DNA of 64,000 nt from Acidobacteriota bacterium. Its GTDB lineage: Bacteria > Acidobacteriota > UBA6911. The stretch covers positions 5,760,001-5,824,000 of the forward strand of contig OY761556.1 of the NCBI GenBank assembly GCA_963664705.1, in the 5' to 3' direction. The notes under the pieces were generated by a model that saw nothing but the letters and a program-made list of their open reading frames with translations, did no database searches and was not told the origin of the DNA. Numbering within the stretch: position 1 is the first letter of the stretch; every line of letters begins with the position of its first letter. A program made the translations under genes and the position numbers. This document shows, in pieces, positions 36,422-51,545 of the stretch.

Positions 36422-37045
36422 ATGAGTCAGGATCCGGCTGAAACTCAGGGTCTTCTGGAACAAGCCAAGACAGGCGATCATTCTGCTTTTGAGGAACTTT
36501 TTAATCGGCACCGGGGGCGGCTGCAAAAGGCTATAGCCATTCGGATGGACCGACGCATTGCGGCGCGTGTGGATGCATCGGATATTCTACAGGAAACCTA
36601 CCTCGAGGCATTCAAGAGACTCCCAAGATATCTTCAACAGGAGGGGATGCCTTTTTACCTTTGGCTCCACTGGATTGCCCGGGAAAAGGTGCTGGGGTTG
36701 CACCGTCGACACCTGGGCGCGGATAAGCGCGCAGTTCAGCGCGAGGTGCCGCTAATGCCGGCGGACAGTTCCGTGGAATTCGTGAGCGGCATGATCGGCC
36801 GCGGACCATCGCCAAGTCAGGAGTTGGCTAAAGCCGAGCTCGCGGAACAACTGAGCAAGGCATTGGGACAACTCGATGATGATGAACGCGACCTGATCCT
36901 CTGGCGGCATTTCGAACAACTAAGTGCGCGCGACACGGCACAGCTTCTCCAGATATCCGAAGCCGCTGCCGCCAAGCGATACATTCGGGCTGTCGAGAGG
37001 CTACGCACGCTTTTGATCGGACTTGGAGTCTCCGGCCCTCGGTAG
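36422..37045 (+). CDS. ECF sigma factor (planctomycete-like, kinase-associated)
   Basis: RVDASDILQETYLEAF, LHRRHLGADKRAVQRE, PSPSQ, LILWRHFEQLS...AAAKRYIRAVERLR. Confidence 0.9.
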   Translation: MSQDPAETQGLLEQAKTGDHSAFEELFNRHRGRLQKAIAIRMDRRIAARVDASDILQETYLEAFKRLPRYLQQEGMPFYLWLHWIAREKVLGLHRRHLGADKRAVQREVPLMPADSSVEFVSGMIGRGPSPSQELAKAELAEQLSKALGQLDDDERDLILWRHFEQLSARDTAQLLQISEAAAAKRYIRAVERLRTLLIGLGVSGPR

Positions 37046-37181
37046 CTTTAGATTCATTTTTACTGCGTATGGAAGTTGAAAGCCTTTGAATCTCGAAGGA
37101 TCAAGGAGTAACTAGAGGCGAACGCTCTACTTCTACTCTTTCATTCCCCTAGGGTTCATTACGGAAAGGCGGGATGGCGGT

Positions 37182-40100
37182 ATGAATGAAGACTCCTTGC
37201 TTGGGCAATTAGTTGATGAATTCACAAGTAGAGTCCGGGAAGGGAAGCCGCCGGACGTTGAGGAATATGTCAATCGCTATCCCCAATTGGCCGGCCGCAT
37301 ACGGGAGCTGTTCCCAACGTTGATGCTTCTTGAGGGTATAGGCGTTACCCGCTGTGGCACTGCAACCCAAGCTATGGCGTCTCCGCTCTCTGAAAACTCG
37401 GTTTTTGGCAGCTACCATATAAAGCGGGAGATTGGCCGGGGAGGTATGGGGATCGTCTATGAAGCGGTCCATGCGCTTCTTGAAAAGAAAGTTGCTTTGA
37501 AGGTTCTGCCGGTCGGGACTCTCGCGGGCGCGGATCAACTTGAGCGTTTTTTCCGCGAAGCAAGGATGGCTGCCGGGTTGCACCATACAAATATCGTATC
37601 GGTGTTCGATGTGGGACAGGTTGCCGGAACACCCTATTATGCAATGCAGTACATCGAAGGCAGCAGCCTCGATCAGATTTTGCACATAATGCAATCGGCT
37701 TCAGGGCAGGACGCTGTAGATCCATCCGCACGCATTCAAGCCGGGTTGCCAGGCAGCGCCGAAGATTATTTCAGCTGGGTTTCAGGAATAGGAATGCAGG
37801 CCGCAGAAGGTTTGGCATATGCGCATGAGCGCAAAATCATCCACCGCGACATCAAACCCTCAAATCTATTGCTCGACAATCAAGGGGTGCTCTGGATCGC
37901 CGACTTCGGACTTGCCAGGAAGATCGAAGACCCGGCAATGACACAGAGCGGCGTAATGCTGGGGACTCCTCGCTACATGAGCCCCGAACAGGCCGAATCC
38001 ACCAGGCGCACCGTCGACCAACGCAGCGACATTTATAGTCTAGGAGCAACCCTCTATGAGCTTCTGACCTGCCGACCGGTATTTGAAGGAAAGACTCCGC
38101 AGGAAGTGTTGTCGCAAATCGTCACTCGCGAACCGGTTGCGCCGAGGCGGCTGAACCCGGATATCCCCGCTGATTTAGCGATCATTGTTATGAAAGCCAT
38201 GGCCAAGCGTCCGGACGATCGATACCAATCGGCTCGTGATTTGGCAGATGATCTCGAGCACTGGCGGAAAATGGAGCCGATCAACGCCCGGCCGATCGGA
38301 CCCTTCGGACGCACAATCCGCTGGTGCCGTCGCAATCCACGGGTGTCGGCGATAACGGCTGCTGCCATTGCTGTCATTGTTCTTCTCACCGGCATTTATA
38401 TTGCAGGCATGACAAAGAAAAACCGGGAGATTCAAGCGGCTCTCTCCCGCGCCGAACTGGGCACAGCCGCGGTACAGGCAGCGCTCCGGGATGACTCCCA
38501 AGCGTACATTAGACGAGCTACCGAGATTGCCAGACTCGACCAGGTAATGCATGGATCCGAAAATATCGAATTATTGCCGCAGGCCGTCAACGATTTATTA
38601 ATCATTCAGTTCTCTCAAAAAAAGGAATCACCTGAAATTAGACAGGTTTTGGCCGAATCGGAAAAGCGGGCGCTTGAGATGGCAAGACGCGCTGTGGACG
38701 TGCATGATGCCAGGTTCGTGGAATCGATCGGTCTTCTGGGTGAGTACTTCGAAGGCAAAAATGATTTACATCAGGCAGAGTGGCTATACCGCCAAGCGCT
38801 CGCGCTCGCAAGGCCGCTCCCAGAAAATCGGGGAGTCATCGAGAGATTAACCAATAAGATGAAATCGTTGTCGGAGAAACGGGTGGAGCTTTTGCAGAAA
38901 GAGGCTGAATCTGCCCTAAATTCTGGAGAGATTGCAAAGGCTGGAACCATATATCGCGAGGCACTCAAAATCCGTCGCGAGATCTCGGGTGGAGAGGATA
39001 TCCGAGATGTGATACTGGAACGGAATCTCGGTTCGGCTCTTGTGGAGTCAGGTCAACTCGAAGAAGGCGAGAAGGTTCTACGCAACAACTATCGATTATG
39101 CCTGACCAAGCTGGGCAAAGATAATCCCTCGACTCAAATGGTCGTGCGGAGCCTGATCTCGCTCTATGCCACCTGGAAAAAACAGCCTGAGAAGATTGCC
39201 GAATATTGCGCTGCCCTGCCTCATCCTGAAATAGTCAGCATAAAGGAATTGGGTGCGCAATCCTTTACTGAATCCGGAGAGGGACCATTCAGTGCTGCGT
39301 GGAATGGAAAGCAGGTCTGGGCTCTTGGGAATACGGCCGGACCGGGGACGACATCCAGCAGTTGGCTATGGAATGATGCCGGCCAAAAAGGAGATAAGCT
39401 AGGACCCTGGCGCCAGCGCAAGGACGAGCATGGACGGAGCCTATCACTGTTGCCTCTCACGGCAGACGAGGATGAATTCAACCGTGCCCGCGCCGATACT
39501 CGCTGCCGCGAAAACTGCCAGGAGTACTGGAACATAACGCCTGGTCCGATAATTCCTCTTCCTGGAAATAAGGGCGCACTGCTTTTTTACGGCAAAAACT
39601 TTATTCGTCCAGGCGATATCTTCAAGAATAGATCCACCGTGGGGACCTCAATTGCGATTTGGAAGGATCCCACTGCTCCGGCCGCCCGCAAGGATCTCAG
39701 ACCTGGGGCACCTGAGCCAACGCTTTTGTTTCAGCAGCCGGAGCCTTCAATCGGCATCCAGGCGTTTGCCTGGGCAAACTACCTGTATGCCTACGGCCGG
39801 ACTCCTGATCAGGGCGATCAGCTGATCGTCGCTCGCGCTCCCCTGGACGAAGCTCTTCAGCGAGGCGCCTGGCGTTTCTATTCCGGATACGGCCGATGGT
39901 CGGAGGCATGGCAGGAGGCAGTGCCCGTAATGAAGGGTTATCGTGGATCAATAGACTGGAACTGGTATTTAGGAAAATTGGTCCGGGTGTCGAACCATTT
40001 CCCATCTGATAACATGCTTTCCATCAGTACTTCAGATCGGCCCGAAGGACCTTGGTCCCAGTCTCAGGATATTCCATTAGGCCATAGACCAGACTCAAGG

Positions 40101-40226
40101 ATCAATTATCCATTGGCACATTCTGAATTGTCAGAAGAACGCGGACGAGTGCAGTATGTGACATATCAGCTCGAAACCGGCCTTTTCAAAACCGAAACCC
40201 GCTTTGTCGAGATCGTTTTCAAGTGA
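37182..40226 (+). CDS. Ser/Thr kinase with TM, TPR and C-terminal DUF4185-like domain
   Basis: IGRGGMGIVY, VALK, HRDIKPSN, DFG, GTPRYMSPEQ; TM; TPRs; YLYAYG...LIVARAP...WRFYSG...WNWYLGK...RPEGPWS. Confidence 0.88.
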   Translation: MNEDSLLGQLVDEFTSRVREGKPPDVEEYVNRYPQLAGRIRELFPTLMLLEGIGVTRCGTATQAMASPLSENSVFGSYHIKREIGRGGMGIVYEAVHALLEKKVALKVLPVGTLAGADQLERFFREARMAAGLHHTNIVSVFDVGQVAGTPYYAMQYIEGSSLDQILHIMQSASGQDAVDPSARIQAGLPGSAEDYFSWVSGIGMQAAEGLAYAHERKIIHRDIKPSNLLLDNQGVLWIADFGLARKIEDPAMTQSGVMLGTPRYMSPEQAESTRRTVDQRSDIYSLGATLYELLTCRPVFEGKTPQEVLSQIVTREPVAPRRLNPDIPADLAIIVMKAMAKRPDDRYQSARDLADDLEHWRKMEPINARPIGPFGRTIRWCRRNPRVSAITAAAIAVIVLLTGIYIAGMTKKNREIQAALSRAELGTAAVQAALRDDSQAYIRRATEIARLDQVMHGSENIELLPQAVNDLLIIQFSQKKESPEIRQVLAESEKRALEMARRAVDVHDARFVESIGLLGEYFEGKNDLHQAEWLYRQALALARPLPENRGVIERLTNKMKSLSEKRVELLQKEAESALNSGEIAKAGTIYREALKIRREISGGEDIRDVILERNLGSALVESGQLEEGEKVLRNNYRLCLTKLGKDNPSTQMVVRSLISLYATWKKQPEKIAEYCAALPHPEIVSIKELGAQSFTESGEGPFSAAWNGKQVWALGNTAGPGTTSSSWLWNDAGQKGDKLGPWRQRKDEHGRSLSLLPLTADEDEFNRARADTRCRENCQEYWNITPGPIIPLPGNKGALLFYGKNFIRPGDIFKNRSTVGTSIAIWKDPTAPAARKDLRPGAPEPTLLFQQPEPSIGIQAFAWANYLYAYGRTPDQGDQLIVARAPLDEALQRGAWRFYSGYGRWSEAWQEAVPVMKGYRGSIDWNWYLGKLVRVSNHFPSDNMLSISTSDRPEGPWSQSQDIPLGHRPDSRINYPLAHSELSEERGRVQYVTYQLETGLFKTETRFVEIVFK

Positions 40227-40594: not shown

Positions 40595-40685
40595 AAAAAC
40601 GTCACTAATTTCGCGGATGGTAACGAATGGCTTCCAGACCAGCCCCGCAACATTTGTGTCAATTCGTGGAATTAGTGGCGTTTTT
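40595..40685. repeat. REP-like palindrome overlapping the LysR stop codon
   Basis: AAAAACGTCACTAATT...CGAATG / CATTTG...AATTAGTGGCGTTTTT. Confidence 0.55.
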
Positions 40686-41610
40686 CGCAGCCGGGTTTTC
40701 GCAGTGGTTGGAGTTTGTTCGCCGTTTCCTTCAACAAATCCCTTAGCCAAATATGCCCTGGGTCCTGGTCCTGATAACGATGCCACTGAAGGCACTGGGT
40801 AACTTTTGGAATGTCAAAAGGAGGGGGAATTAGCCTCAGAGGCAGGTGTTGTGCGCAAAGCCGGGCTATTCGGCTCACAACCGTTGTTATTCTGTTGGTT
40901 CCCACAACCAGCCGGCACGCAGATTCGAAATCCTGTGTAATGACTTCTATTTTTCTTGTCTCTCCGTAATGTGTTGCATACCACTCTTCAAAAATTGCCT
41001 GAGCCGTCCCGAAATGAACCGCGATGTGGCCCATGTTGACGAACTGGCTTGAGGAAATTCTGTTTCCAACTATCGGGTTGTCGCGCCACACCACACAGGT
41101 GTGGGTATCTTCGAAGAGCGGTTCCTTCGGATGCGCCCTCAAGGCATGAATGGATGGACGGACAAAGAAATCGATGCCGCCCTTCTCCAGTTTCTGTTCG
41201 ATGTGCTCATCAAGCCGCACAAGTTCAAATCTGATTCCGGGCGCCTTCCGCGCAGCTTCCTGCATGGCCTGAGGCATCAAAACAGCGGTCACATAGTCGG
41301 ATACGGCAAGGCAGAATTTCCGGTCGGAAGCAGCCGGATCGAATGCCGCTTTCGAAGCGACGGTGTGCTGGATCTGCATCAGGCAACTTCTTACCGGCTG
41401 CACAAGGCTTTCCGCCAGCGGCGTCAGGACCATTCTGCGCCCCGCGGGAGCCAACAATTCATTTCCGAAGTACTTTCGAAGGCGCGAGAGGATTATGCTG
41501 GTCGCCGGCTGACTTAAATGGAGCCGCTCGCCGGCGCGCGTGACACTCTTTTCCGTCAACAAGGCATCCAGTGCTACAAGCAACCCGATATCGAAATTGT
41601 CCAGATCCAT
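40672..41610 (-). CDS. LysR-family regulator, NodD-like
   Basis: DIGLLVALDALLTEKSVTRAGERLHLSQPA...RLRKYF..ELL...GRRMVLTPLAESL, FDPAASDRKF...SDY, QWHRYQDQDPGHIWLR. Confidence 0.9.
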   Translation of the reverse strand: MDLDNFDIGLLVALDALLTEKSVTRAGERLHLSQPATSIILSRLRKYFGNELLAPAGRRMVLTPLAESLVQPVRSCLMQIQHTVASKAAFDPAASDRKFCLAVSDYVTAVLMPQAMQEAARKAPGIRFELVRLDEHIEQKLEKGGIDFFVRPSIHALRAHPKEPLFEDTHTCVVWRDNPIVGNRISSSQFVNMGHIAVHFGTAQAIFEEWYATHYGETRKIEVITQDFESACRLVVGTNRITTVVSRIARLCAQHLPLRLIPPPFDIPKVTQCLQWHRYQDQDPGHIWLRDLLKETANKLQPLRKPGCEKRH

Positions 41611-41622
41611 AAGGCCTCAGGT

Positions 41623-41637
41623 ATTTAAGGTTTTAAT
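41623..41637. promoter_or_regulatory. LysR box (T-N11-A; ATT-N9-AAT)
   Basis: ATTTAAGGTTTTAAT in the AT-rich divergent region 12 bp from the lysR start. Confidence 0.5.
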
Positions 41638-41765
41638 TACAATACATATGAAATATCTATTCCACAAATGGAAAAAATTCATGTACATTCGCATTGTGGG
41701 CAATTCCAGTTTCAGCCAGGAAGAATGGAATACTGCCCGTCAATCAGCAAATCGGGAGTTATCCA

Positions 41766-42596
41766 ATGGCATCTTCAGAATTACCTCCGCTCAGTCCAGA
41801 AGAACAGCGAAGATCCTACGCCAAATACTATAAAAGGCCGGTTTCGCCGGATCCCGCGCATCTGGCTTTGATGGACATGCCCTGCGACCCCTCAAAAGCC
41901 GTATATCCGGAGCAGATGAATGACCTTCTCAATCCCGGCGATCTGTCGGTGGAGATTGGGTGGTGCAATCTGCCCAACGGCGCGGGCTTTATCGCCAACA
42001 GGAACTTCTACAAAAATGTGACGGCAGAGATGATCGACTGGTGGTTCGCCTGGCATCCGCTTGACGGCTTGCGGTACCGCATTTGGTATCCGCCGCAACA
42101 CGCGGGAATTGATCTGAAGCCCGAAGGCCGGGCGCGAATTCTGGATCCAGGCATCCCCGTTTCTGAGAAGAATTGGGGGGTAACCCATTTTGTTACCGAA
42201 GACTGCGATTGTGGAATGGAAAACATCGAAATCACATTTCTGTCGCCTCGAGATTTCGGATTTGATATGACGCGGTGGCAGGAACCGTACGTTTCCACTT
42301 TCGCAGGCGGCTTCGGCTGGTCCACACCGGCTGGGCATACGGAGCATCCCATAAAGGCACCTTCTTTAATGTGTCATATTTTTCGAAATATCCCGGGCGG
42401 TCTCGAACACCGAACGCGCTTCTGGATCGGTTATCGGATGTCCAGCGGCAAGCCTGAACTGGTCCTGCCTCCGGGCATCGCAGTTCCGGCAATAGCGGTT
42501 CAGGGGTTGGCAAGGCACAATGTACGGGAATTCAGTAATCTTGGCGTGCTGCTGCCGGAGATCCACGCGGAATACGGCGGGCAGCTGATCGGGTAA
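41766..42596 (+). CDS. PhlG/phloretin hydrolase family C-C hydrolase
   Basis: VTAEMIDWWFAWH...RYRIWYPPQH, THFVTED, EHRTRFWIG, ARHNVREFSNL; the H/E/H/E Zn-ligand pattern is present. Confidence 0.88.
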   Translation: MASSELPPLSPEEQRRSYAKYYKRPVSPDPAHLALMDMPCDPSKAVYPEQMNDLLNPGDLSVEIGWCNLPNGAGFIANRNFYKNVTAEMIDWWFAWHPLDGLRYRIWYPPQHAGIDLKPEGRARILDPGIPVSEKNWGVTHFVTEDCDCGMENIEITFLSPRDFGFDMTRWQEPYVSTFAGGFGWSTPAGHTEHPIKAPSLMCHIFRNIPGGLEHRTRFWIGYRMSSGKPELVLPPGIAVPAIAVQGLARHNVREFSNLGVLLPEIHAEYGGQLIG

Positions 42597-42630
42597 GCAT
42601 AAATACGTTCGAATCAGTTTTGGAGGGGGC

Positions 42631-42852
42631 ATGAGTGCCACTATTGAGATCAATCTGGATGAATGCACTGGCTGCAAAAATTGTGTTGAGGCTTGCTTTG
42701 TAGATGTGATGCGATGGGACGATGACGAAGAAAAGCCGGTTGTCGCATATGAACCGGATTGCGTCTGGTGTTTTACTTGCGAAATCAACTGCCCCGCTCA
42801 ATGCATCAACGTCGTACCTCAAATGCCGGGACAACTCGTAAATCCGTACTGA
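42631..42852 (+). CDS. 2x[4Fe-4S] ferredoxin (AprB-like small subunit)
   Basis: CTGCKNCVEAC and CVWCFTCEINCP. Confidence 0.9.
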   Translation: MSATIEINLDECTGCKNCVEACFVDVMRWDDDEEKPVVAYEPDCVWCFTCEINCPAQCINVVPQMPGQLVNPY

Positions 42853-42881
42853 GCGTCGTCCGCAAACAAAGGGAGTCATAC

Positions 42882-45128
42882 ATGGTAGAGAAAGCCAAGA
42901 ACTCAACAGCATACGATACAGACGTTCTTATCATCGGCGGCGGCTTCGGAGGCCTTTCGGCAGCGATCCGGATTAAAGAACTGTCCCCGGAATCCAGTGT
43001 GCTGCTCGTCGATAAACAGACAATTGGCTGGGGAGGAAAAGCGAACAAAGGGGCCGGCGTTTTATGGGTCCTTGCCCCCGGAGATGACATCGATGCCTTT
43101 GCGGATTTCCACGTAAAGAACATAGGGATGTACCTGAACGACCAGGATCTGCTGTATGCCATGGCCCGGGAGTCATACGGAGCGGCGCAGAAGCTCGCGG
43201 ATTGGGGCGTTAAGGTGATGAAGACTCCGAATGGAGATCTTGATGTCAGCCGGCTTCCTTTCGGATGGTCCCTGGCGGCCGCCGACTTGGATATGATGCA
43301 GCCGCTTAGGGCAAAGGCGGTGAAACTCGGAGTCAAGCTGTTGGACAAGACTCATGTGGTCGATTTGCTGAAACAGGAAGGACGCGTAACCGGCGCAGTC
43401 GGCTTCAATCTCCTGGATGGGGGATTCGCGGTCTTCAACGCAAAGGCCACGATATTGGCCAACGGAGATTGCGATTTCGGCGTTATGCGAATGTGGGCTA
43501 ATGCCACCGGAGACGGCATTGCAGCCGCCTTTAATGCCGGAGCGGAGATGCGGAATGCCGAATTCGGCAACTTTTACGATGTCACCAACAAAGGCACAGG
43601 CATTCCGATCGTTTTCGGTTTTAACTCTCTCTGGAACGCGCAGGGGGAGAATATAAGCGCCAAATACATCCATGGACCGCAGCCGGATATCCCGATTTCC
43701 ATCATTCTCGGTATGGAGAAAGAGGTCATGGAGGGAAGAGGACCTATCTATTTTGACCCGGCTGAGTTTGCGAAAAGCATGGGTGGCGGCGGCGGGGGAA
43801 TATTTCAATGGGACCGGCCTCATACCAAAGCGCTTTTTGCCTGTGATGCAAAGAAGGCACAGCAGTATGGCCCGCCACCGGCAGAGAAAATAGAAGTTTC
43901 TCTTGGATTCACAGGCGAGTTTTCCGCAATCAGAGTAGACAGCGAAATGCAAACAACCCTCCCGGGTCTGTGGGCAATCGGAGATACCAGCTATGCGGGA
44001 TCTGCATGGGCCGGCGCTGCAGAGGCGCCGCCGGGCAGATTGAGAGGCTCCGGCCTGATGAACGCTTTGATATCCGCTCTGATGTCTGCCCGGTCCGTGG
44101 TTGAGCACGCAAAAGAGGCCTCCCCTACCATTGCGGATGACAACCAGGTCGCCGCTCTAAGGGAGAAAATTTTTGCGCCTCTGAACCGTGACGGCGGATA
44201 CGCGGCTTCGGAAGCCATACGAAGCATTCAGGAAGTAGTTGTACCGGTGAAATACAGCATGCGCAGGAACAAGGAAAGACTGGAAGAAGCCTTGTCCAAG
44301 GTGGCAGCGGTCAAGGAGAGGCTGCCCGAATTATCCGCCAAGGATCCGCACGGTCTCGTCCGCTGTCATGAGGCTTCCTGCATTGCACTGTGTGCCGAAA
44401 TCGGCTTTAAGTCAGCGCTGGCGCGCACTGAAAGCAGGGGTTGGCATTACAGAGAGGATTATCCCCAGCAGGACGACAAAAACTGGCTCAAGTGGGTCAT
44501 TGTAAAAAAAGTGCAGGACAGCATGGTCGTTACCACCGAGCCCATTCCCAGCGAGCTCTATAAACTAAAGCCAGGACAGGTTACCGCTGTGCCTGACGCG
44601 GTTGTCGAACACGATGAGCTTATCGGGGTGACCCCCGAAATGATCGATTGGTGGTGGGTCAATATGGAAAAGGGATACCCATTGTGGGAACCAACCGATC
44701 ACAAATCCTTTGTTTGGGAAGTGCCGCCGCCGGTTGGAGGATATCTGGGAGCAATCCAGATCGCAGAGGAAAAAATGGGGCCAATGCCGCCGATGAAAAT
44801 TCGCATCCGGTGGGACGACCCCGCCACCTGCTCCATCCCTTGTATCTACGAGCATGCGATCGTTGCAGCTGGGGTTAGTCCCGATGGGAAGGTGGGCGCT
44901 ATGATTCTCCATGAGTGGGAAAAGAGTCCCCGGGGAACCAGGATGCGCTCCACGATGCGTTTCCCGGGTCCCGTTCCACCCGGCTTCGCCGAGATCTGGA
45001 AAGCTCACGACAGGGCGGAAGTATCGACCTTCCCCGGATTCCTGCCCGATCTCTACAGACTATGGCAGTCTGTGAAGGATCCGGCAATCAACAGGCAATG
45101 CTCATTGAAGGTGAAGAAAACTTCGTAG
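42882..45128 (+). CDS. AprA/SdhA-like FAD oxidoreductase fused to a C-terminal PhlG-like domain
   Basis: DVLIIGGGFGG, AKATILANG, TGDG, PGLWAIGD, ARTESRGWHYREDYP; then GVTPEMIDWWW...LWEPTDH...IAEE...AHDRAE from about 44600. Confidence 0.88.
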   Translation: MVEKAKNSTAYDTDVLIIGGGFGGLSAAIRIKELSPESSVLLVDKQTIGWGGKANKGAGVLWVLAPGDDIDAFADFHVKNIGMYLNDQDLLYAMARESYGAAQKLADWGVKVMKTPNGDLDVSRLPFGWSLAAADLDMMQPLRAKAVKLGVKLLDKTHVVDLLKQEGRVTGAVGFNLLDGGFAVFNAKATILANGDCDFGVMRMWANATGDGIAAAFNAGAEMRNAEFGNFYDVTNKGTGIPIVFGFNSLWNAQGENISAKYIHGPQPDIPISIILGMEKEVMEGRGPIYFDPAEFAKSMGGGGGGIFQWDRPHTKALFACDAKKAQQYGPPPAEKIEVSLGFTGEFSAIRVDSEMQTTLPGLWAIGDTSYAGSAWAGAAEAPPGRLRGSGLMNALISALMSARSVVEHAKEASPTIADDNQVAALREKIFAPLNRDGGYAASEAIRSIQEVVVPVKYSMRRNKERLEEALSKVAAVKERLPELSAKDPHGLVRCHEASCIALCAEIGFKSALARTESRGWHYREDYPQQDDKNWLKWVIVKKVQDSMVVTTEPIPSELYKLKPGQVTAVPDAVVEHDELIGVTPEMIDWWWVNMEKGYPLWEPTDHKSFVWEVPPPVGGYLGAIQIAEEKMGPMPPMKIRIRWDDPATCSIPCIYEHAIVAAGVSPDGKVGAMILHEWEKSPRGTRMRSTMRFPGPVPPGFAEIWKAHDRAEVSTFPGFLPDLYRLWQSVKDPAINRQCSLKVKKTS

Positions 45129-45242
45129 GTACTGAAAGCCTCAAGTGGCGATCGTTCCATCGCCACTTGGGGCCCATTTGATCCCGCCATTCCGTAATCC
45201 TATTATTGGAGTTCCCGCACGACGACAGACTTCGATGGAATA

Positions 45243-47396
45243 CTATTTATAGTAATTGAAAAATACCACCAGCTTGCCGCTTTCTTTTCCGGGGATAATT
45301 TTCAGTTCTATCTGTCCGCTGACTGTTGTGCCAACACCCAATTTTTCCAATGTTGCAGTTACTGTTGGTTTATCTCCTGAGCCGATTAGTTCGGTATTTG
45401 TCAACTGGCCTTTCCACAATACCGGGCCAAAGGAATGCCTCAGTACATATTCGCCAGGAATAATGTTTTCAAATACATACTCATTGGTTCCTTCTTTAAC
45501 CATTTTTCGGTCAACAGGACCTTGTCCAAACATTCCTTCCATGGGCGCAGCGCCACCTTTCGCAAGTTCAATCTCCGCGCCACGTCCGAGAGTCCTTTGT
45601 GTTCTTTCCCTGTAGTAATCGGTTCCATTGTCAAATGCTTCAACTTCGAAATAGTATTCGGGATTTTTATTCAAACTGTGAATGGTTAATGTGTTGGCAT
45701 CGTAAACCATGTAGCTGTTGTAAAGCTTTTTGGGCTCGATGCCGTAGCGAACAACATAGCCAGCGGCTCCTTTTACCGGTTCCCACAAGAGGGTTGCGTC
45801 GCGACGATCTTCCTGGCTGCGAACTGCTTTCACATTTATTGATTTCGTAAATTTGGCAACTTCAGGATTACCGAAGATCCGCAAATCTTTCACTGCGAAT
45901 TTCCCGCTCTCCGGAGTAAATACGTTTGTTAATTTGACATACCTTGCTTTTACAGGTTCTGCAAGTTCGGCGTAATCATGTTGGATCGCTTCCTTGTTGT
46001 TGCTTTTGTCAATTACGATTGTCCAGGTCTTGTTGTCGTTCGAAACCTGGAGCGTATAAGACTGTTGCTGCGCGTTTTTGTCGGTATTGACATTCATGCC
46101 CATTCCAAAGCCGCGCCCCATGCCGGTTGTTTTGGCATCTTTCTGGTCGAAATTGATCTGCAATGCATAAATTTTGCATTCTTTGCCCAGGTCAACAGTC
46201 ATGTATTCACCGGGCTTACCTGTTTGAGCGCTCCAGAAAGTCATGAAGTTTTCATCTACGGCCTTCTGCGGTTCAAAGCCTTCCAGGGTAGAAGACGTCT
46301 CCACATATTTTTTGTTGGATAAAAGCATCCAGCCCGAAAAGTTGTTGTCAGCCGGGCTTTTTGCGATTCCGGGATAAAATTGTGGGTAGTCGCCGAAAGC
46401 TGTGTTCGAGTGCATTACCCCCTGGGCATCTACCGCCGTTGGGTACAGGGCCAAGTCGCTGCCGCCTCTTCCCCCAAAGTAAGACGGGATCATGCAGATG
46501 GTCCACAGGTTTCCGTTCTTGTCATGAAAAGTGCTGCCATGTCCACCGCCTGGAGCAAACCCGGTAGTTTTGAATGTAAGCGGGTTGTGTTCAGAATATT
46601 TGAACGGGCCCATTGGGCTGTCCGATATATAAACGCCATGAGAGTAGGATAAAAATTCGAGACCGATGGCTGCATATTGCAGGTAATATTTTCTGTTGTA
46701 TTTTACCATCCACGGACCTTCAATCCATGGGATTTCTTCGGGGAAGTACGGGCGGTGGTTGAAGAACGGGAAGATAACGTCTTCCTTTCTTCTTCTCTCA
46801 AATCCGTGGTTCTCAGGATCGCCAAAGAAGCAAACGACTGGTTTGCCTTTTTCCTTGAATCCCTTTTGGGGATCCAGTTCAACAACCTGGATCGGAAGAA
46901 GCTGGGACCATCCGTAGTACATATAAACGCGGCCATCATCGTCGATAAAAATGTCGGCATCACCGTACCGGTCACTGTCGAGTGTGGCGGCCTTGGTCCA
47001 AACACCGCTCTTGGGATCGGTCGATGAAAACAGATCCTTTGAATTCATTGCGCAGGCATAGAGGATCTTCCCGTCGGTAGCAACCCCGGGAACCCCGCCC
47101 GGAAAAGTGGGAGCATCGATATAGGTCCAATCCCTCATGTTTGGAGAGCTCCAATATCCACGGCTTCCGGTGATGAAAAGATAGTAGTCATTATTAAAAA
47201 TAAGCACGATCGGCTCGCCGGCTCGCCTGGCGCCTGGAATGGTCAGCGGGTTGCAGTAAGTCATCGGCTTATCCTTTATCAGGACAGCGGCGGCTTTCGA
47301 GACGGCATTTTCATCTGATTTTTCGGGGCCAGCTGCGCTGGCGATACTGGCAATAAAAACAATTCCGACAAGCAGTATTTCATTTATTGTTTTCAT
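45243..47396 (-). CDS. Secreted GH43 glycoside hydrolase with F5/8C (CBM32-like) and FN3 domains
   Basis: TYCNP, DADIFIDDDGRVYMYYG, PWIEGPWM, GHGSTF, AVDE..TFWSA...ARYVKL, GYVVRYGI. Confidence 0.87.
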   Translation of the reverse strand: MKTINEILLVGIVFIASIASAAGPEKSDENAVSKAAAVLIKDKPMTYCNPLTIPGARRAGEPIVLIFNNDYYLFITGSRGYWSSPNMRDWTYIDAPTFPGGVPGVATDGKILYACAMNSKDLFSSTDPKSGVWTKAATLDSDRYGDADIFIDDDGRVYMYYGWSQLLPIQVVELDPQKGFKEKGKPVVCFFGDPENHGFERRRKEDVIFPFFNHRPYFPEEIPWIEGPWMVKYNRKYYLQYAAIGLEFLSYSHGVYISDSPMGPFKYSEHNPLTFKTTGFAPGGGHGSTFHDKNGNLWTICMIPSYFGGRGGSDLALYPTAVDAQGVMHSNTAFGDYPQFYPGIAKSPADNNFSGWMLLSNKKYVETSSTLEGFEPQKAVDENFMTFWSAQTGKPGEYMTVDLGKECKIYALQINFDQKDAKTTGMGRGFGMGMNVNTDKNAQQQSYTLQVSNDNKTWTIVIDKSNNKEAIQHDYAELAEPVKARYVKLTNVFTPESGKFAVKDLRIFGNPEVAKFTKSINVKAVRSQEDRRDATLLWEPVKGAAGYVVRYGIEPKKLYNSYMVYDANTLTIHSLNKNPEYYFEVEAFDNGTDYYRERTQRTLGRGAEIELAKGGAAPMEGMFGQGPVDRKMVKEGTNEYVFENIIPGEYVLRHSFGPVLWKGQLTNTELIGSGDKPTVTATLEKLGVGTTVSGQIELKIIPGKESGKLVVFFNYYK

Positions 47397-47846: not shown

Positions 47847-49865
47847 TTGGCAGACGGATATGCAGGAAAAATATTGAGAATCAACCTGACGTCCAAGTCA
47901 ATCTCTACGATCGATACCTCCAAGTATGAAGAGTTCGGCGGGGGGTATGGGATGGGGACCGCCATCTTCTGGGATCTGGCGGTCGCGCCGGGCGAATGGG
48001 ACCTGAAGGATCCATACGATCCACGGAACGTAATTCCCCTTATGGTTGGCCCTTTTGCTGCTACTGGAGTTCCTGGCGCAGGCAGAACGAGCATTTGTGG
48101 CCTGTCTCCCGAGACATTTCCAACCTCCGAATTCTGGCGGGGTAATTTAGGCGGTCAATTCGGGACCATGACAAAACTTGCAGGTTGGGATGGAATAGTA
48201 ATTGAAGGCAAGGCCGATAAGCCGGCTTGGATCAATATCATCAACGACCAAGTCAGGATCGAGGATGCCAAGGAACTCTGGGGCCTGGATACTTGGGAGA
48301 CACAGAACCGAATCACTTCAATGGTGTGCGGAAGAGTTCGATTTGGTGAAGAATGGCAACAGATCGGGGATGCCTATACCACTGCACGACCGCAGATCGT
48401 CTGCATCGGGCCAATAGGCGAAACCAAGTCAAGACTCGCCGCTCTGATTTCCGGCAGTGGAATCAGCGTACGAGTGGGTGGCTATGGGGCGGTTTTCGGG
48501 GCCAAGAACTTAAAGGCTGTGAGCGTAATCGGGACCGGCGGGGTGCAGGTCTCAAATCCGGCGCATGTACTGGAAACCAGACTCCAGCATCTGCAATCAG
48601 GGAGTGTTTTCCCGCCCCGCCCCGGGTCGGCATCCTGCTCACCTTGCTTAAGCGGAGACCGGCGTCGGAGCAACTATTACGGCGGTGAGACCATGTGCGC
48701 CTGTCAGGGATGGCTTGGTGGCGACAAAAGCCAGACGGATCAAGACAAGGCTTCCGAAGCATTGATAAAATATGGCCTCAGCAGCTGGTCTGCCCATTGG
48801 CACCGGGACTCCTTTGAGCTTTCCGAGGCGCCGGAATTTTTTCATGGGAAAGTGCCATCGGACTTTGGCCTGGGCTCATATCTCCAGTATCTGTATGAGC
48901 AGGGAGTGTTGGGTCCGGGGAAGCAGATCGATTCGTATCCGCTGCCCATGGATCAGAGAGGAGAGTTCAGTTTCCGCCTTGCCTTTTTGGAGGCAGTTGC
49001 CCACCGTACCGGGATTGGCGATGCCCTGGCCGAAGGTTGCTGCCGGGCCGCTCAGAAATGGGGACGGCTGGAAACGGACAAGGACAACGGAGCCCTGCGC
49101 CTTCCAGCCTGGGGAGCAACAAGCCACTGGACGATGCCCTATGTTGAATGGGCTTATGCCTACATGCTCGGAGCAGGGGATCCTGCCTGGCATACATTCA
49201 TGCTTCGCACCAGCGCTCCCCGCGACGGCACATCCCTGGAAATATCTCTGGCGAATCTGGCAAAGAAGACTATCCCCTATACCGACGACATTTTCATGTT
49301 CAACTATGCGTGGAAGGGAGAGGAGGCTTGGAAAACCGGCATCTATTCGCCGCATAAAGCCAAGCAGGTGGCGTGGGGTCGGCACTATTCTTCATTTTGG
49401 AACGAATCCATGGCTTTTTGCGAGATGTTCCATCACGCGCTGGGCAGCAATAGTCCGGAATTGGAAATGGACTACTACAGAGCTGTCACCGGGAAAAAGG
49501 ACTCCTTTGCCGATACGATGCGAATCGGTCAAAAAATCTGGACCTTGGAGCGCGCCATCCGTGTCATGCACGGAAGAAGTCGGCAAACGGAAGACTTATT
49601 TCCATATATGTATAAGCCCGGAGCGTCAGGCAAGACAAAGTACGGCGGAGTGCCGATCTATGAAAACGGCAAATGGCATTCCGATTTGGCGCCGGACATG
49701 TACCTGGACCGAAAGGGCGTGGACGACTTCAAAACCCACTTCTATACGCTCGAAGGATGGGATAAGGAACATGGCTGGCCTACTCGCGGGACACTGGAAG
49801 AGTTGGGATTGGGAAGAATAGTGAAGGTACTCGGTGACCATGGGAAACTGGGAATCGGCCAATAA
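47847..49865 (+). CDS. Aldehyde:ferredoxin oxidoreductase (AOR/WOR, YdhV-like), copy 3
   Basis: TTG start with GAGGGG RBS; close paralog of copy 2; no adjacent Fe-S gene. Confidence 0.92.
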   Translation: MADGYAGKILRINLTSKSISTIDTSKYEEFGGGYGMGTAIFWDLAVAPGEWDLKDPYDPRNVIPLMVGPFAATGVPGAGRTSICGLSPETFPTSEFWRGNLGGQFGTMTKLAGWDGIVIEGKADKPAWINIINDQVRIEDAKELWGLDTWETQNRITSMVCGRVRFGEEWQQIGDAYTTARPQIVCIGPIGETKSRLAALISGSGISVRVGGYGAVFGAKNLKAVSVIGTGGVQVSNPAHVLETRLQHLQSGSVFPPRPGSASCSPCLSGDRRRSNYYGGETMCACQGWLGGDKSQTDQDKASEALIKYGLSSWSAHWHRDSFELSEAPEFFHGKVPSDFGLGSYLQYLYEQGVLGPGKQIDSYPLPMDQRGEFSFRLAFLEAVAHRTGIGDALAEGCCRAAQKWGRLETDKDNGALRLPAWGATSHWTMPYVEWAYAYMLGAGDPAWHTFMLRTSAPRDGTSLEISLANLAKKTIPYTDDIFMFNYAWKGEEAWKTGIYSPHKAKQVAWGRHYSSFWNESMAFCEMFHHALGSNSPELEMDYYRAVTGKKDSFADTMRIGQKIWTLERAIRVMHGRSRQTEDLFPYMYKPGASGKTKYGGVPIYENGKWHSDLAPDMYLDRKGVDDFKTHFYTLEGWDKEHGWPTRGTLEELGLGRIVKVLGDHGKLGIGQ

Positions 49866-49988
49866 GGAATTGCCTCTCAACTTAGAATGGAATCATTCCG
49901 TCATTGGTTGAATTATGCGAAAGAGTTTGCCTGATGACGACTTGTTCTCATAAAATACATTCCACTAATTCATTCCGAGGAGCTTAGG

Positions 49989-51545
49989 ATGCGCAATAAT
50001 GAAAATGAAGGGACTCGCGTCGACAGACGAAGCTTTTTAAAACAAACCACAATTGCGGGAATGGCGGCAGCGCTTCCAAACGCGCTACCGGCATCGAACC
50101 TGCTTGCCCAGACGGCTGCAAGTGCGGTTAAGATAAGCGCGAAACCGAGCGGCGGGACAAGGAAAATGCTTTTCCTCAATAATGTCCCACAGCAGTTCGG
50201 GAAATTGATCGAATCCGTACAGGCAATACCCAACCTGGATCTCATTCCCGTCACTGCATCAAAATTTAAAACCACTCAGGAAATCGTCAGCGCCATTCAA
50301 AGCCAGAGTCCGGATATCGTCCTGATGCGCATTCCGCGAATTGGGATGGCGCCTTCCGTGATGGCTGATGCGCTGGAAGGCCTGGAAATGCCCGTCGTTG
50401 TGCTGCCGGAAAATCTCGGTTTGATCATGGGTGAAGCGGACATGGTGGCGCAAATGCGAACAAAGGGCGTCAATGCCATGCTTGCGACGGACGAAGCAAA
50501 GGCGATAGAACTCTCAAGGATTCTGGCTGCGCCCGGCGTTCTCGCAGGTAAAAAGGCAATTATTTACGGCCGGCCTTTCGACTCAACCAGCGTAACCGCG
50601 CATAATCTCAATTCAGACATCATCTATAAGCGCACCGGCATCAGGATTGAATATCGGCCGATTGAAGATCTGAAAACGCAATTGGAAGGCGTATCTGTTG
50701 CAAGCGCGCAAAAGGAACTCGAGCGTTGGAAGAAGGAAGCCTATCGAGTTGATGACGTCACCGATAAAGCGCTCCTCGACACCTGCCGCGTCTATGTTCT
50801 GCTGCGTTCCATTATCGAAAAGGAAGCGTTGTCGGGCATCTCTATTGATTGCCTGAACTTCTCCTTTAACGCTCGATGGAAGGACGGGGCTCTCAGCGAT
50901 AACCGCATGATTCCGCTTCCCTGTCTAGCATTCACCCGGTTGCGCGATGAAGGCTATGCCGCACCGTGCGAAGCCGACGTGGTTGGGATGCTTTCGTCGA
51001 TGGTTTTGCAGGAAATTAGCCAAAAACCCTCCTACTTCTGCAACGTGTCTGAAATCAATTCGCAGAAGTCTCATGTTATTCTCCGCCACTGCGTCGCTCC
51101 CTTGAAACTGCTCGGCCGAGATAAGCCCGCCCTGAAATATAGAATCCGCGATTATCACGGAATGGGAGGCGCCACGCCGGAAGTGCAGTTCCCCGTCGGC
51201 CTTGAAATCACCATGGGCGGATTCACCAAAGATTTGAAAAACTTCGTGGTATGGCCGGGAAGGATTCAGCCGACAGTAATGGACACCAAAACTCCATCCT
51301 TCGCCAATGCCACTGGCGATGCGGCAAAAATGCTCAAATACTGCTCAAACAGAGCTGAAGTCAAAATCAAGGAAGTTGACCGCTTCATGCAGAACATTGC
51401 GGAAATCCACCACACAATGGTCGCCGGCAACTATGCGAGTGCGCTTCGAGATGAAATGATCCGGGCGAATGCAAACATCGTTGGACCAATGGATGCATCG
51501 GCCCCGGCGGTAAATGCCGCGGCTCCGGCCAAGAGCAAAACATAA
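49989..51545 (+). CDS. Tat-signal protein with an L-fucose/L-arabinose isomerase-like fold
   Basis: DRRSFLK signal; ISIDCL, PCLAFTRLRDEG..APCEADV, LRHC, DYHG, CSNRAEV...HHTMVAGNY. Confidence 0.7.
   Translation: MRNNENEGTRVDRRSFLKQTTIAGMAAALPNALPASNLLAQTAASAVKISAKPSGGTRKMLFLNNVPQQFGKLIESVQAIPNLDLIPVTASKFKTTQEIVSAIQSQSPDIVLMRIPRIGMAPSVMADALEGLEMPVVVLPENLGLIMGEADMVAQMRTKGVNAMLATDEAKAIELSRILAAPGVLAGKKAIIYGRPFDSTSVTAHNLNSDIIYKRTGIRIEYRPIEDLKTQLEGVSVASAQKELERWKKEAYRVDDVTDKALLDTCRVYVLLRSIIEKEALSGISIDCLNFSFNARWKDGALSDNRMIPLPCLAFTRLRDEGYAAPCEADVVGMLSSMVLQEISQKPSYFCNVSEINSQKSHVILRHCVAPLKLLGRDKPALKYRIRDYHGMGGATPEVQFPVGLEITMGGFTKDLKNFVVWPGRIQPTVMDTKTPSFANATGDAAKMLKYCSNRAEVKIKEVDRFMQNIAEIHHTMVAGNYASALRDEMIRANANIVGPMDASAPAVNAAAPAKSKT

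Follow-up and report, generated by a model that had tools for sequence, protein, structure and literature searches.

A genuine fusion of a flavoprotein to a PhlG-type hydrolase domain in an Acidobacteriota genome, and the ferredoxin-linked module to which it appears to belong

The window analysed here is a 64,000-nucleotide stretch of the forward strand of an Acidobacteriota bacterium (GTDB lineage UBA6911; assembly GCA_963664705.1, contig OY761556.1, positions 5,760,001 to 5,824,000), and our subject is a gene within it whose product joins a flavoprotein, assigned to the AprA/SdhA superfamily, to a domain of the PhlG hydrolase type. The gene is a single stop-free open reading frame (ORF) of 748 aa in the ORF analysis of the window, with a Shine-Dalgarno-like AAGGGAG whose 3' end lies 6 nt ahead of its ATG. 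It is preceded on the same strand by a full-length ("long") hydrolase gene and a small ferredoxin gene, beyond which lies a divergent LysR-family gene, and it is followed by a hairpin that separates it from a convergent GH43 gene (Table 1). Pfam places FAD_binding_2 at residues 14-227, Succ_DH_flav_C at 457-565 and DAPG_hydrolase at 577-690 (E 7.4e-6, above cut-off).

Table 1. Features of the locus, with positions in the window
Feature	Position	Strand	Basis
LysR-family regulator, divergent	40672..41610	-	Pfam HTH_1 and LysR_substrate
Full-length ("long") PhlG/phloretin-hydrolase-family C-C hydrolase, 276 aa	41766..42596	+	Pfam DAPG_hydrolase, E 3e-68
2x[4Fe-4S] ferredoxin, 73 aa, AprB-like core, no AprB tail	42631..42852	+	two CxxCxxCxxxC motifs, Pfam Fer4
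Fusion gene, 748 aa	42882..45128	+	ORF, Pfam, homologues, Logan contigs, genus genomes
Flavoprotein domain (aa 1-564), AprA/SdhA superfamily, predicted non-covalent FAD (G52); signature K53/K56, N230, E346, R386/R388	42882..44573	+	
"Short" PhlG-type domain (about aa 572-748), Bet v1/START fold	44595..45125	+	model, fold and profile matches, conservation
15-bp hairpin between fusion gene and convergent GH43 gene	45138..45172	.	-28 kcal/mol, z -5.3

The fusion of the flavoprotein to the PhlG-fold domain is genuine. Logan contigs from two runs of one sample, possibly the source of the window, span 41500-45400 with zero differences, and a 151-nt Logan contig from a second sample covers 44550-44700, again with zero differences; neither a stop nor a frameshift is seen at the junction (44550-44620). 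Among the matches listed, 89 proteins of more than 700 aa are full-length fused homologues, 87 of which retain the four hydrolase motifs, and the whole fusion is present in 24 of the 30 genomes of the window's genus. In the other six it is cut by a contig end (one), lies in pieces (one), lacks the short domain (one, G009) or has no match (three). The uninterrupted flavoprotein-PhlG frame described in the initial annotation is thus borne out by the 748-aa frame, the Pfam architecture and the genus genomes, its homologues are not always two separate genes, and all the motifs that had been quoted are found in the sequence. A frameshift or misassembly at the fusion is ruled out by the fused homologues, the contigs and the genus genomes. 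At two places (L075 and G491:C12:71411-73270) the fusion gene lies in several frames, representing a pseudogene or a sequencing error. No plasmid-borne homologue of the fusion was found at E 1e-40.

Pfam, fold and tree all place the flavoprotein in the AprA/SdhA superfamily, as had been proposed, but sequence comparison shows that it is not an Sdh, Frd, NadB or AprA and that it belongs to a separate clade. None of the NCBIfam cut-offs is reached, the scores lying 2.9- to 11-fold below those of Frd, Sdh and NadB. The top models are PRK08275 (NF006131), with 201.9 bits against a cut-off of 587, and PRK06854, which together with TIGR02061 stands for AprA and scores 149 against 557 bits (TIGR02061, 98 against 642). 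The FMN_red or OYE/Oxidored_FMN folds of FLR and of Fcr/enoate reductases are absent, with FAD_binding_2 and Succ_DH_flav_C in their place, so that any likeness to these reductases would be one of function alone. By profile and fold the closest structures are 3'-phosphoadenosine-5'-phosphosulfate (PAPS) reductase 8a8o, with a TM-score of 0.78, and adenosine-5'-phosphosulfate (APS) reductase 1jnr, followed by Frd and Sdh.

Aligned with E. coli FrdA, H44, to which flavin adenine dinucleotide (FAD) is covalently bound, becomes G52, H232 becomes Y232, H355 becomes T344 and R287 is unmatched, so that of the dicarboxylate site of SdhA, FrdA and NadB (H232, R287, H355, R390) the R390-like R386 is the sole remnant. 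Glycine occupies the H44 position in 71 of the 75 clade members, and the FAD is predicted to be non-covalent. Arginine is found as R386 in 62/75 members and as R388 in 65/75, and FrdA His355 is retained in 9/75. The earlier claim that the catalytic residues are replaced therefore stands for H44, H232, R287 and H355, whereas the arginine at the R390 position persists and His355 survives in those nine members. As most dicarboxylate-binding residues are lost, the protein is probably not a C4-dicarboxylate enzyme, in line with the initial annotation. The clade has a signature of its own, K53/K56, N230, E346, S348 and PPGRxRGSG.

In a 75-row tree the module-linked flavoproteins form one clade apart from AprA, the own-genome AprA-like paralogues and FrdA (support 100/99 in the careful tree), and they group with AprA against FrdA (100/99), which together with the fold, the missing covalent histidine and the adjoining dicluster ferredoxin points to the AprA-like branch. 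The trees were built with LG+G4 only and carry a long-branch warning near AprA; the first leaves out L060, L067, L073 and L075 (fragments) as well as L117 and one own-genome paralogue (partial). The fold, the absence of the covalent-FAD histidine and a small 2x[4Fe-4S] partner encoded directly upstream are features shared with AprBA (1jnr, 2fja) and with the AprA-like PAPS reductase of archaea (8a8o). Our protein differs from these in its identity of ~25% and its separate clade, in having GEFS and PPGRLRGSG in place of the AprA active-site motifs GSHS and HKFSSGS, and in being paired with a C-C hydrolase and a 73-aa ferredoxin without the AprB tail; no sulfate-reduction context was seen. With FrdA, SdhA and NadB it shares the superfamily, the arginine near FrdA R390 and possibly the hydride-to-enone chemistry proposed below, whereas the operon offers only the 73-aa dicluster ferredoxin and neither an SdhB-type Fe-S subunit nor membrane anchors. 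Each domain comes from a known superfamily, while by sequence the flavoprotein fits no named family and its partner and context appear to be new. Beyond the clade lie sister groups at a greater distance, several of them with different fused domains, and the wider branch is therefore larger than the PhlG-linked module. One sister clade (P0288, P0295, P0300, P0309, P0315) carries a fused C-terminal domain of ~170 aa without a Pfam match, which by eye is redoxin-like without cysteines. The window genome has six more AprA-like flavoproteins (G000:C1 near 4.068, 2.755, 1.172, 4.172, 2.747 and 3.347 Mb), which form their own clade, lack the RTESRG motif and in at least three cases adjoin a ferredoxin.

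The C-terminal domain is a truncated PhlG/phloretin-hydrolase fold that retains the metal ligands, and metal-dependent C-C hydrolysis of an acyl-phloroglucinol is predicted for it. It matches PF18089 with 26.1 bits against a cut-off of 22.7, and 5xe5 by profile at E 4e-10. Modelled alone from 94 sequences, it reaches a predicted local distance difference test (pLDDT) score of 95, and its top fold matches are phloretin hydrolase Phy (5xe5/5xey) and PhlG (3hwp), with other START/PR-10 proteins within 1 Z unit. The alignment to 3hwp (VIA Z 14.4, root-mean-square deviation 2.6, 162 residues) begins at PhlG residue 87, the first ~85 residues of PhlG being absent. Y599, H607, E630, H677, H709 and E713 are kept and H658 is invariant; H607, E630, H709 and E713, conserved in 93, 86, 94 and 94 of the 94 sequences, align with the metal ligands of PhlG, which we take to be H129, E160, H270 and E274. 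The second catalytic tyrosine of PhlG, presumably Y229, is replaced by T691. Accordingly, the short domain has the Bet v1-like fold, the His/Glu/His/Glu metal site, the first tyrosine and a further histidine in common with PhlG and Phy, but differs from them in its missing N-terminal region, its 22-24% identity, the lost tyrosine, the extra H658 and the fused flavoprotein. PhlG proper (NF047887) is not among the best 25 of 50 models for the fusion.

The initial annotation had recognized in this domain the pattern of the neighbouring PhlG. The metal-ligand pattern is indeed common to both, but the domain is not derived from its neighbour, as BLASTP aligns the two at 30% over 47 aa only and they fall in separate clades, ruling out a duplicate. 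The short subfamily also exists as free genes, as in L069. A full-length AlphaFold model (36-row alignment) leaves most of 567-748 under pLDDT 50 and does not resolve the C-terminal domain or any interface between the domains. Genes of the short PhlG type that have no flavoprotein next to them lie beside FLR-like genes at L137:7750-11488 (Alkalibacter mobilis), L119:4852-7248 (G024) and G185:C1:1936111-1938251; those of L137 and L119 also adjoin chalcone isomerase (CHI) genes, and that of L137 in addition indolepyruvate-oxidoreductase-like, PTA/PTB and kinase genes. These short genes are candidates for a hydrolase of alphitonin, an auronol for whose cleavage the enzyme is unknown according to PMC12203004. 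Holophaga foetida (G185) has an unusually large hydrolase set, with seven PF18089 genes and, of the short type, three intact genes plus a fourth that is split into two pieces.

Comparison across genomes indicates that the fused gene represents one of the forms taken by a widespread module of ferredoxin, flavoprotein and PhlG-type hydrolase which appears to be tied to phloroglucinol catabolism. The best 80 of 160 related stretches were kept, giving 78 loci, although L060 and L067 both come from a single genome as separate pieces. In 25 loci the flavoprotein carries a fused short domain (one frameshifted), in 5, all in Bacillota, a fused long hydrolase, and in 48 it is unfused, 34 of these 48 having a PhlG-family gene within 3 kb; in all, 64 of the 78 loci link the flavoprotein to a gene or domain of this family. 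Of the 14 loci without one, the contig ends within the gene in two, one of the flanks is shorter than 2 kb in seven, and the flanks are full in five. The ferredoxin gene lies directly upstream of the flavoprotein in 74 loci, the other four beginning at a contig edge. Around paralogous flavoproteins, PhlG-family genes were found in 0 of 15 neighbourhoods. A long hydrolase is also present in 23 of the 25 short-fused loci. The approximately unbiased (AU) test rejects a single origin of both fusion types (p 1e-9), and the clade thus appears to have fused to PhlG-type hydrolases at least twice, independently. Carriers among the 78 loci include Holophaga foetida, Sporobacter, Parasporobacterium, Alkalibacter, Dehalococcoidia, Thermoleophilia, Desulfobacterota and a Bathyarchaeon. 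At L160 (G254:C24) two tandem sets of ferredoxin and flavoprotein::long-PhlG fusion lie downstream of a complete phloroglucinol cluster.

Within the window operon the long hydrolase gene starts at ATG 41766, the ORF list beginning instead at TTG 41694, and its product matches 5xe5 (E 2e-30) and 3hwp (E 2.5e-28) while staying below the NCBIfam PhlG cut-off (95.6 against 600 bits). The ferredoxin, a weak match to the aprB model TIGR02060 (23 against a cut-off of 136), is by sequence the predicted electron-transfer subunit. The LysR-family regulator, whose cluster lies beside the module in 14/78 loci, all of the Acidobacteriota group, likely controls the operon. The hairpin is a possible terminator, although it has no T run and is not called by the terminator scan. 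Promoter and terminator scans of the locus gave chance-level results, and from an intergenic alignment that recovered three sequences no operator is claimed.

A link to phloroglucinol is seen in two loci, L144 and L161, which read LysR-PhlG-Fd-flavoprotein-SDR-3HCDH-cyclase-BKACE-MFS on one strand and contain no other ring-opening enzyme. As described in PMC10470551, phloroglucinol is degraded by a short-chain dehydrogenase/reductase (SDR; PGR), a cyclase-family hydrolase (DPGC), a 3-hydroxyacyl-CoA-dehydrogenase-like enzyme (TfD) and a BKACE enzyme (TAL); our assignments to these four are by family and gene order, and the best structural matches of the SDR include PGR 5g4k, not as top match. 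Families of this pathway precede the module at L160, and in the window genome a phloroglucinol-family cluster lies 27 kb past the fusion. In the family of G186, where 23 of 301 genomes (centre genome included) carry the flavoprotein, PF18089 occurs in 22/23 carriers against 40/278 others, a DPGC-like cyclase in 21/23 against 21/278 and CHI in 2/23 against 9/278 (p 0.2); the counts were made by hand from tables, and the p-values overstate since kin genomes are not independent. FLR-like genes were seen in 3 of the 22 PhlG-bearing genomes with the module and in 18 of the 40 without it, again among kin that are not independent. Neither CHI nor FLR was found in the window genome, nor was an FCR-like enzyme of close similarity, and across its genus FCR-like enzymes numbered 0/30 at E 1e-110, in a set without a positive control and with not all candidates scored. 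The gut pathways that run through FLR, CHI, Fcr/enoate reductase and Phy to PGR, DPGC, TfD and TAL employ the same hydrolase family and the same downstream genes, whereas their reductases are a flavin mononucleotide (FMN) ene-reductase (FLR) and NADH enzymes of the old-yellow-enzyme (OYE) type, and an AprA-like ferredoxin-linked flavoprotein is not named in the available parts of PMC7862272, PMC10470551 and PMC11572103. Old-yellow-enzyme matches number 30 in G460 and 19 in G188, both module-bearing Bacillota genomes.

Expression data are at hand for Holophaga. The hydrolase called PHY in PMC8084988 is the reciprocal best match of the H. foetida gene adjoining the flavoprotein. In the proteome of tannin-amended anoxic soil in its supplement, Holophaga orthologues of the flavoprotein are represented by 7 and 3 peptides (two entries), of the ferredoxin by 3 and of the hydrolase by 5. 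These and the small protein encoded downstream were detected in one amended replicate on days 10, 14 and 20 (the hydrolase on days 14 and 20) but in none of the 18 samples without added tannin, and the normalized spectral abundance factor of the flavoprotein, 7-8e-4 (7 peptides), is ~7-fold above that of the authors' FCR (1e-4, 1 peptide, one sample). The available text of PMC8084988 does not discuss the flavoprotein, the ferredoxin or the small protein. This Holophaga flavoprotein has no hydrolase fused to it and shares 44% identity with the flavoprotein domain encoded in the window. The small protein, of 118-128 aa and without a Pfam or NCBIfam match (L120:8765-9145, which is G000:C1:5834764-5835144; L080:10575-10928), lies 3' of the module in Holophaga and several Acidobacteria and also within the phloroglucinol cluster of the window genome; in the soil proteome its likely counterpart exceeded the other members of the group in abundance.

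Flavoproteins of this fold typically transfer a hydride to an enone. By analogy, we tentatively propose, with a probability of roughly 0.45, that the flavoprotein draws on ferredoxin to reduce the C-ring enone of flavonoids, giving an acyl-phloroglucinol from which the hydrolase would release phloroglucinol. Substrate, direction and electron donor are what we infer from the following. As the hydrolase family and the phloroglucinol genes occur together, release of phloroglucinol from an acyl-phloroglucinol may be supposed, and as the compact operons encode nothing besides an importer, the module and the enzymes of the lower pathway, an imported compound should be what the flavoprotein turns into the hydrolase substrate. 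C-ring reduction is favoured by the enone chemistry of the fold and by ferredoxin, which suits the hard-to-reduce flavone ring, by a window genome without the known reductases and CHI, and by a role as electron sink, which would explain carriers unable to ferment phloroglucinol.

In such a scheme electrons would pass from reduced ferredoxin through the 2x[4Fe-4S] subunit to the non-covalent FAD, as in AprBA, and the FADH- hydride would be delivered to the beta-carbon of an alpha,beta-unsaturated aryl ketone, that is the C2=C3 bond of a flavone or flavonol or the chalcone form of a flavanone. K53, K56, R386 and R388 would bind the phenolate or enolate, with E346 as a possible proton donor. The ring-opened dihydrochalcone, or with flavonols an alpha-diketone/auronol-type ketone, would be cleaved by the Zn-type hydrolase domain or domains into phloroglucinol and an aryl acid, and the phloroglucinol would be fermented where PGR, DPGC, TfD and TAL are present and otherwise released, the reduction then serving as electron sink. 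The fusion might allow substrate channelling, as the initial annotation had suggested, but 48 of the 78 related loci were scored as unfused and G009 does without the short domain.

Several observations weigh against this proposal. The ene-reductase step rests on fold analogy, and the proton-donor arginine of fumarate reductase and both histidines are gone from the flavoprotein. The fusion is the minority state, G009 of the same genus (100% complete) has the flavoprotein without the short domain, and five full-flank loci (L058, L064, L066, L068, L081) have no PhlG-family neighbour. A phloroglucinol-pathway gene lies within 8 kb in only 11/78 loci, and as PGR-like and DPGC-like genes occur in the same 10 of the 30 genus genomes, 17 of the 27 carriers there, many more than 90% complete, have no detected route of phloroglucinol use. 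The scarcity of FLR may mean that the module replaces it, but would equally be expected if the substrate (catechin, flavanone) did not require FLR. In Holophaga, genes for FLR, CHI and an FCR-like enzyme accompany the module, which would thus be partly redundant there, and OYE genes flank the module in L081, L096 and L106. Lastly, other proteins of the same Holophaga genome share the single-replicate pattern in the soil data, and expression during a bloom, rather than proof of induction, is what that pattern conveys.

The main rival, unlikely but to be weighed, is an opposite direction of electron flow. The flavoprotein could oxidise flavan-3-ols, taking a hydride off C4 of (epi)catechin to give a quinone methide which, after addition of water and a second oxidation or dehydration, would supply the missing entry from catechin to taxifolin or eriodictyol, with the electrons possibly recycled for C-ring opening. 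By our stoichiometry, conversion of catechin and water to phloroglucinol and 3,4-dihydroxyphenylpropionate is redox-neutral overall. The enzymes of the catechin-to-taxifolin step are unknown according to PMC12203004, Fcr does not accept catechin according to PMC13515148, the orthologues detected in soil fed with condensed tannin belong to a genome in which FLR, CHI and an FCR-like enzyme are already present, and carriers are mostly without FLR and CHI. However, benzylic oxidation would yield high-potential electrons hardly usable by fermenters, and the FAD is predicted to be non-covalent; taxifolin would still need ring opening, for which the L144 and L161 operons have no second enzyme, and carriers unable to degrade phloroglucinol would gain little.

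Somewhat less probable is a role for the flavoprotein that follows the hydrolase step or is independent of it, namely to reduce either the released product (a hydroxycinnamate side chain) or, with low-potential ferredoxin, a polyhydroxybenzene ring of resorcinol or phloroglucinol type, the short PhlG domain then opening the resulting cyclic beta-diketone. A ferredoxin-level resorcinol reductase activity exists in a Clostridium, and such a reaction would explain the ferredoxin donor, the two different hydrolases in 23/25 fused loci and the carriers without PGR and DPGC. Yet the carboxylate-binding residues are lost, and in Bacillota, where most carriers have only the long hydrolase, modules co-oriented with PGR and DPGC would make this activity redundant.

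We regard as slightly more doubtful still a coupled catalytic unit of all three parts, acting on an auronol/alpha-diketone, an isoflavanone (by the 6'-hydroxy-O-desmethylangolensin (6'-hydroxy-O-DMA) route) or another acyl-phloroglucinol, with redox at the side-chain carbonyl or alpha-carbon and the fusion channelling an unstable ketone. That the fusion arose repeatedly speaks for it, as do the short PhlG relatives of L137, whose FLR, CHI and indolepyruvate-oxidoreductase-like neighbours form the setting expected for alphitonin cleavage; but the window genome has no CHI to make an auronol, CHI occurs in just 2/23 carriers, identity between the fused domain and the short hydrolases linked to FLR and CHI is no higher than 33-35%, and most loci are unfused. 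Retention of AprA-type sulfur chemistry (a sulfite adduct, APS/PAPS or sulfonate) with an incidental hydrolase link is highly improbable despite the closest solved structures and top NCBIfam models, as the scores are far under all cut-offs, the clade is separate, GSHS and HKFSSGS are not kept, no sulfur-metabolism family is among the recurring neighbour clusters scanned and PhlG linkage is seen in 64/78 loci.

Farther out in the window, an aldehyde:ferredoxin oxidoreductase-like gene (672 aa) and a gene for a twin-arginine (Tat)-signal protein weakly like sulfoquinovose isomerase SftI occupy 47847-51545, a pair not conserved beside the module in relatives, and 36422-40226 holds an extracytoplasmic function (ECF) sigma factor gene followed by a Ser/Thr kinase gene with TPR and DUF4185 domains.

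Much plant carbon resides in flavonoids and condensed tannins, and the way in which they decay without oxygen matters both for the carbon stored in peat and for the methane given off by wetlands and the rumen. Published schemes leave the entry of catechin and the cleavage of auronols without enzymes, and the module is a concrete candidate, present in the harmless cultured anaerobes Holophaga foetida DSM 6591 (unfused set with WP_005035700.1 and WP_005035702.1) and Alkalibacter mobilis; our literature searches, with subscription papers outside their coverage, found no description of it. The databases mislabel the flavoprotein as succinate dehydrogenase/fumarate reductase, misleading metabolic reconstructions. 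A bolder and rather unlikely possibility is that these proteins are a new class of ferredoxin-linked flavoenzymes which, with one hydrolase and no other enzyme, would convert flavan-3-ols (catechin, tannin monomers) or flavonoids to phloroglucinol by electron shuttling inside a single complex, and would thereby supply the first step by which tannins are broken down anaerobically in wetlands and the rumen. If polyphenols are indeed the substrates, AprA-like flavoproteins would extend from sulfur to polyphenol chemistry.

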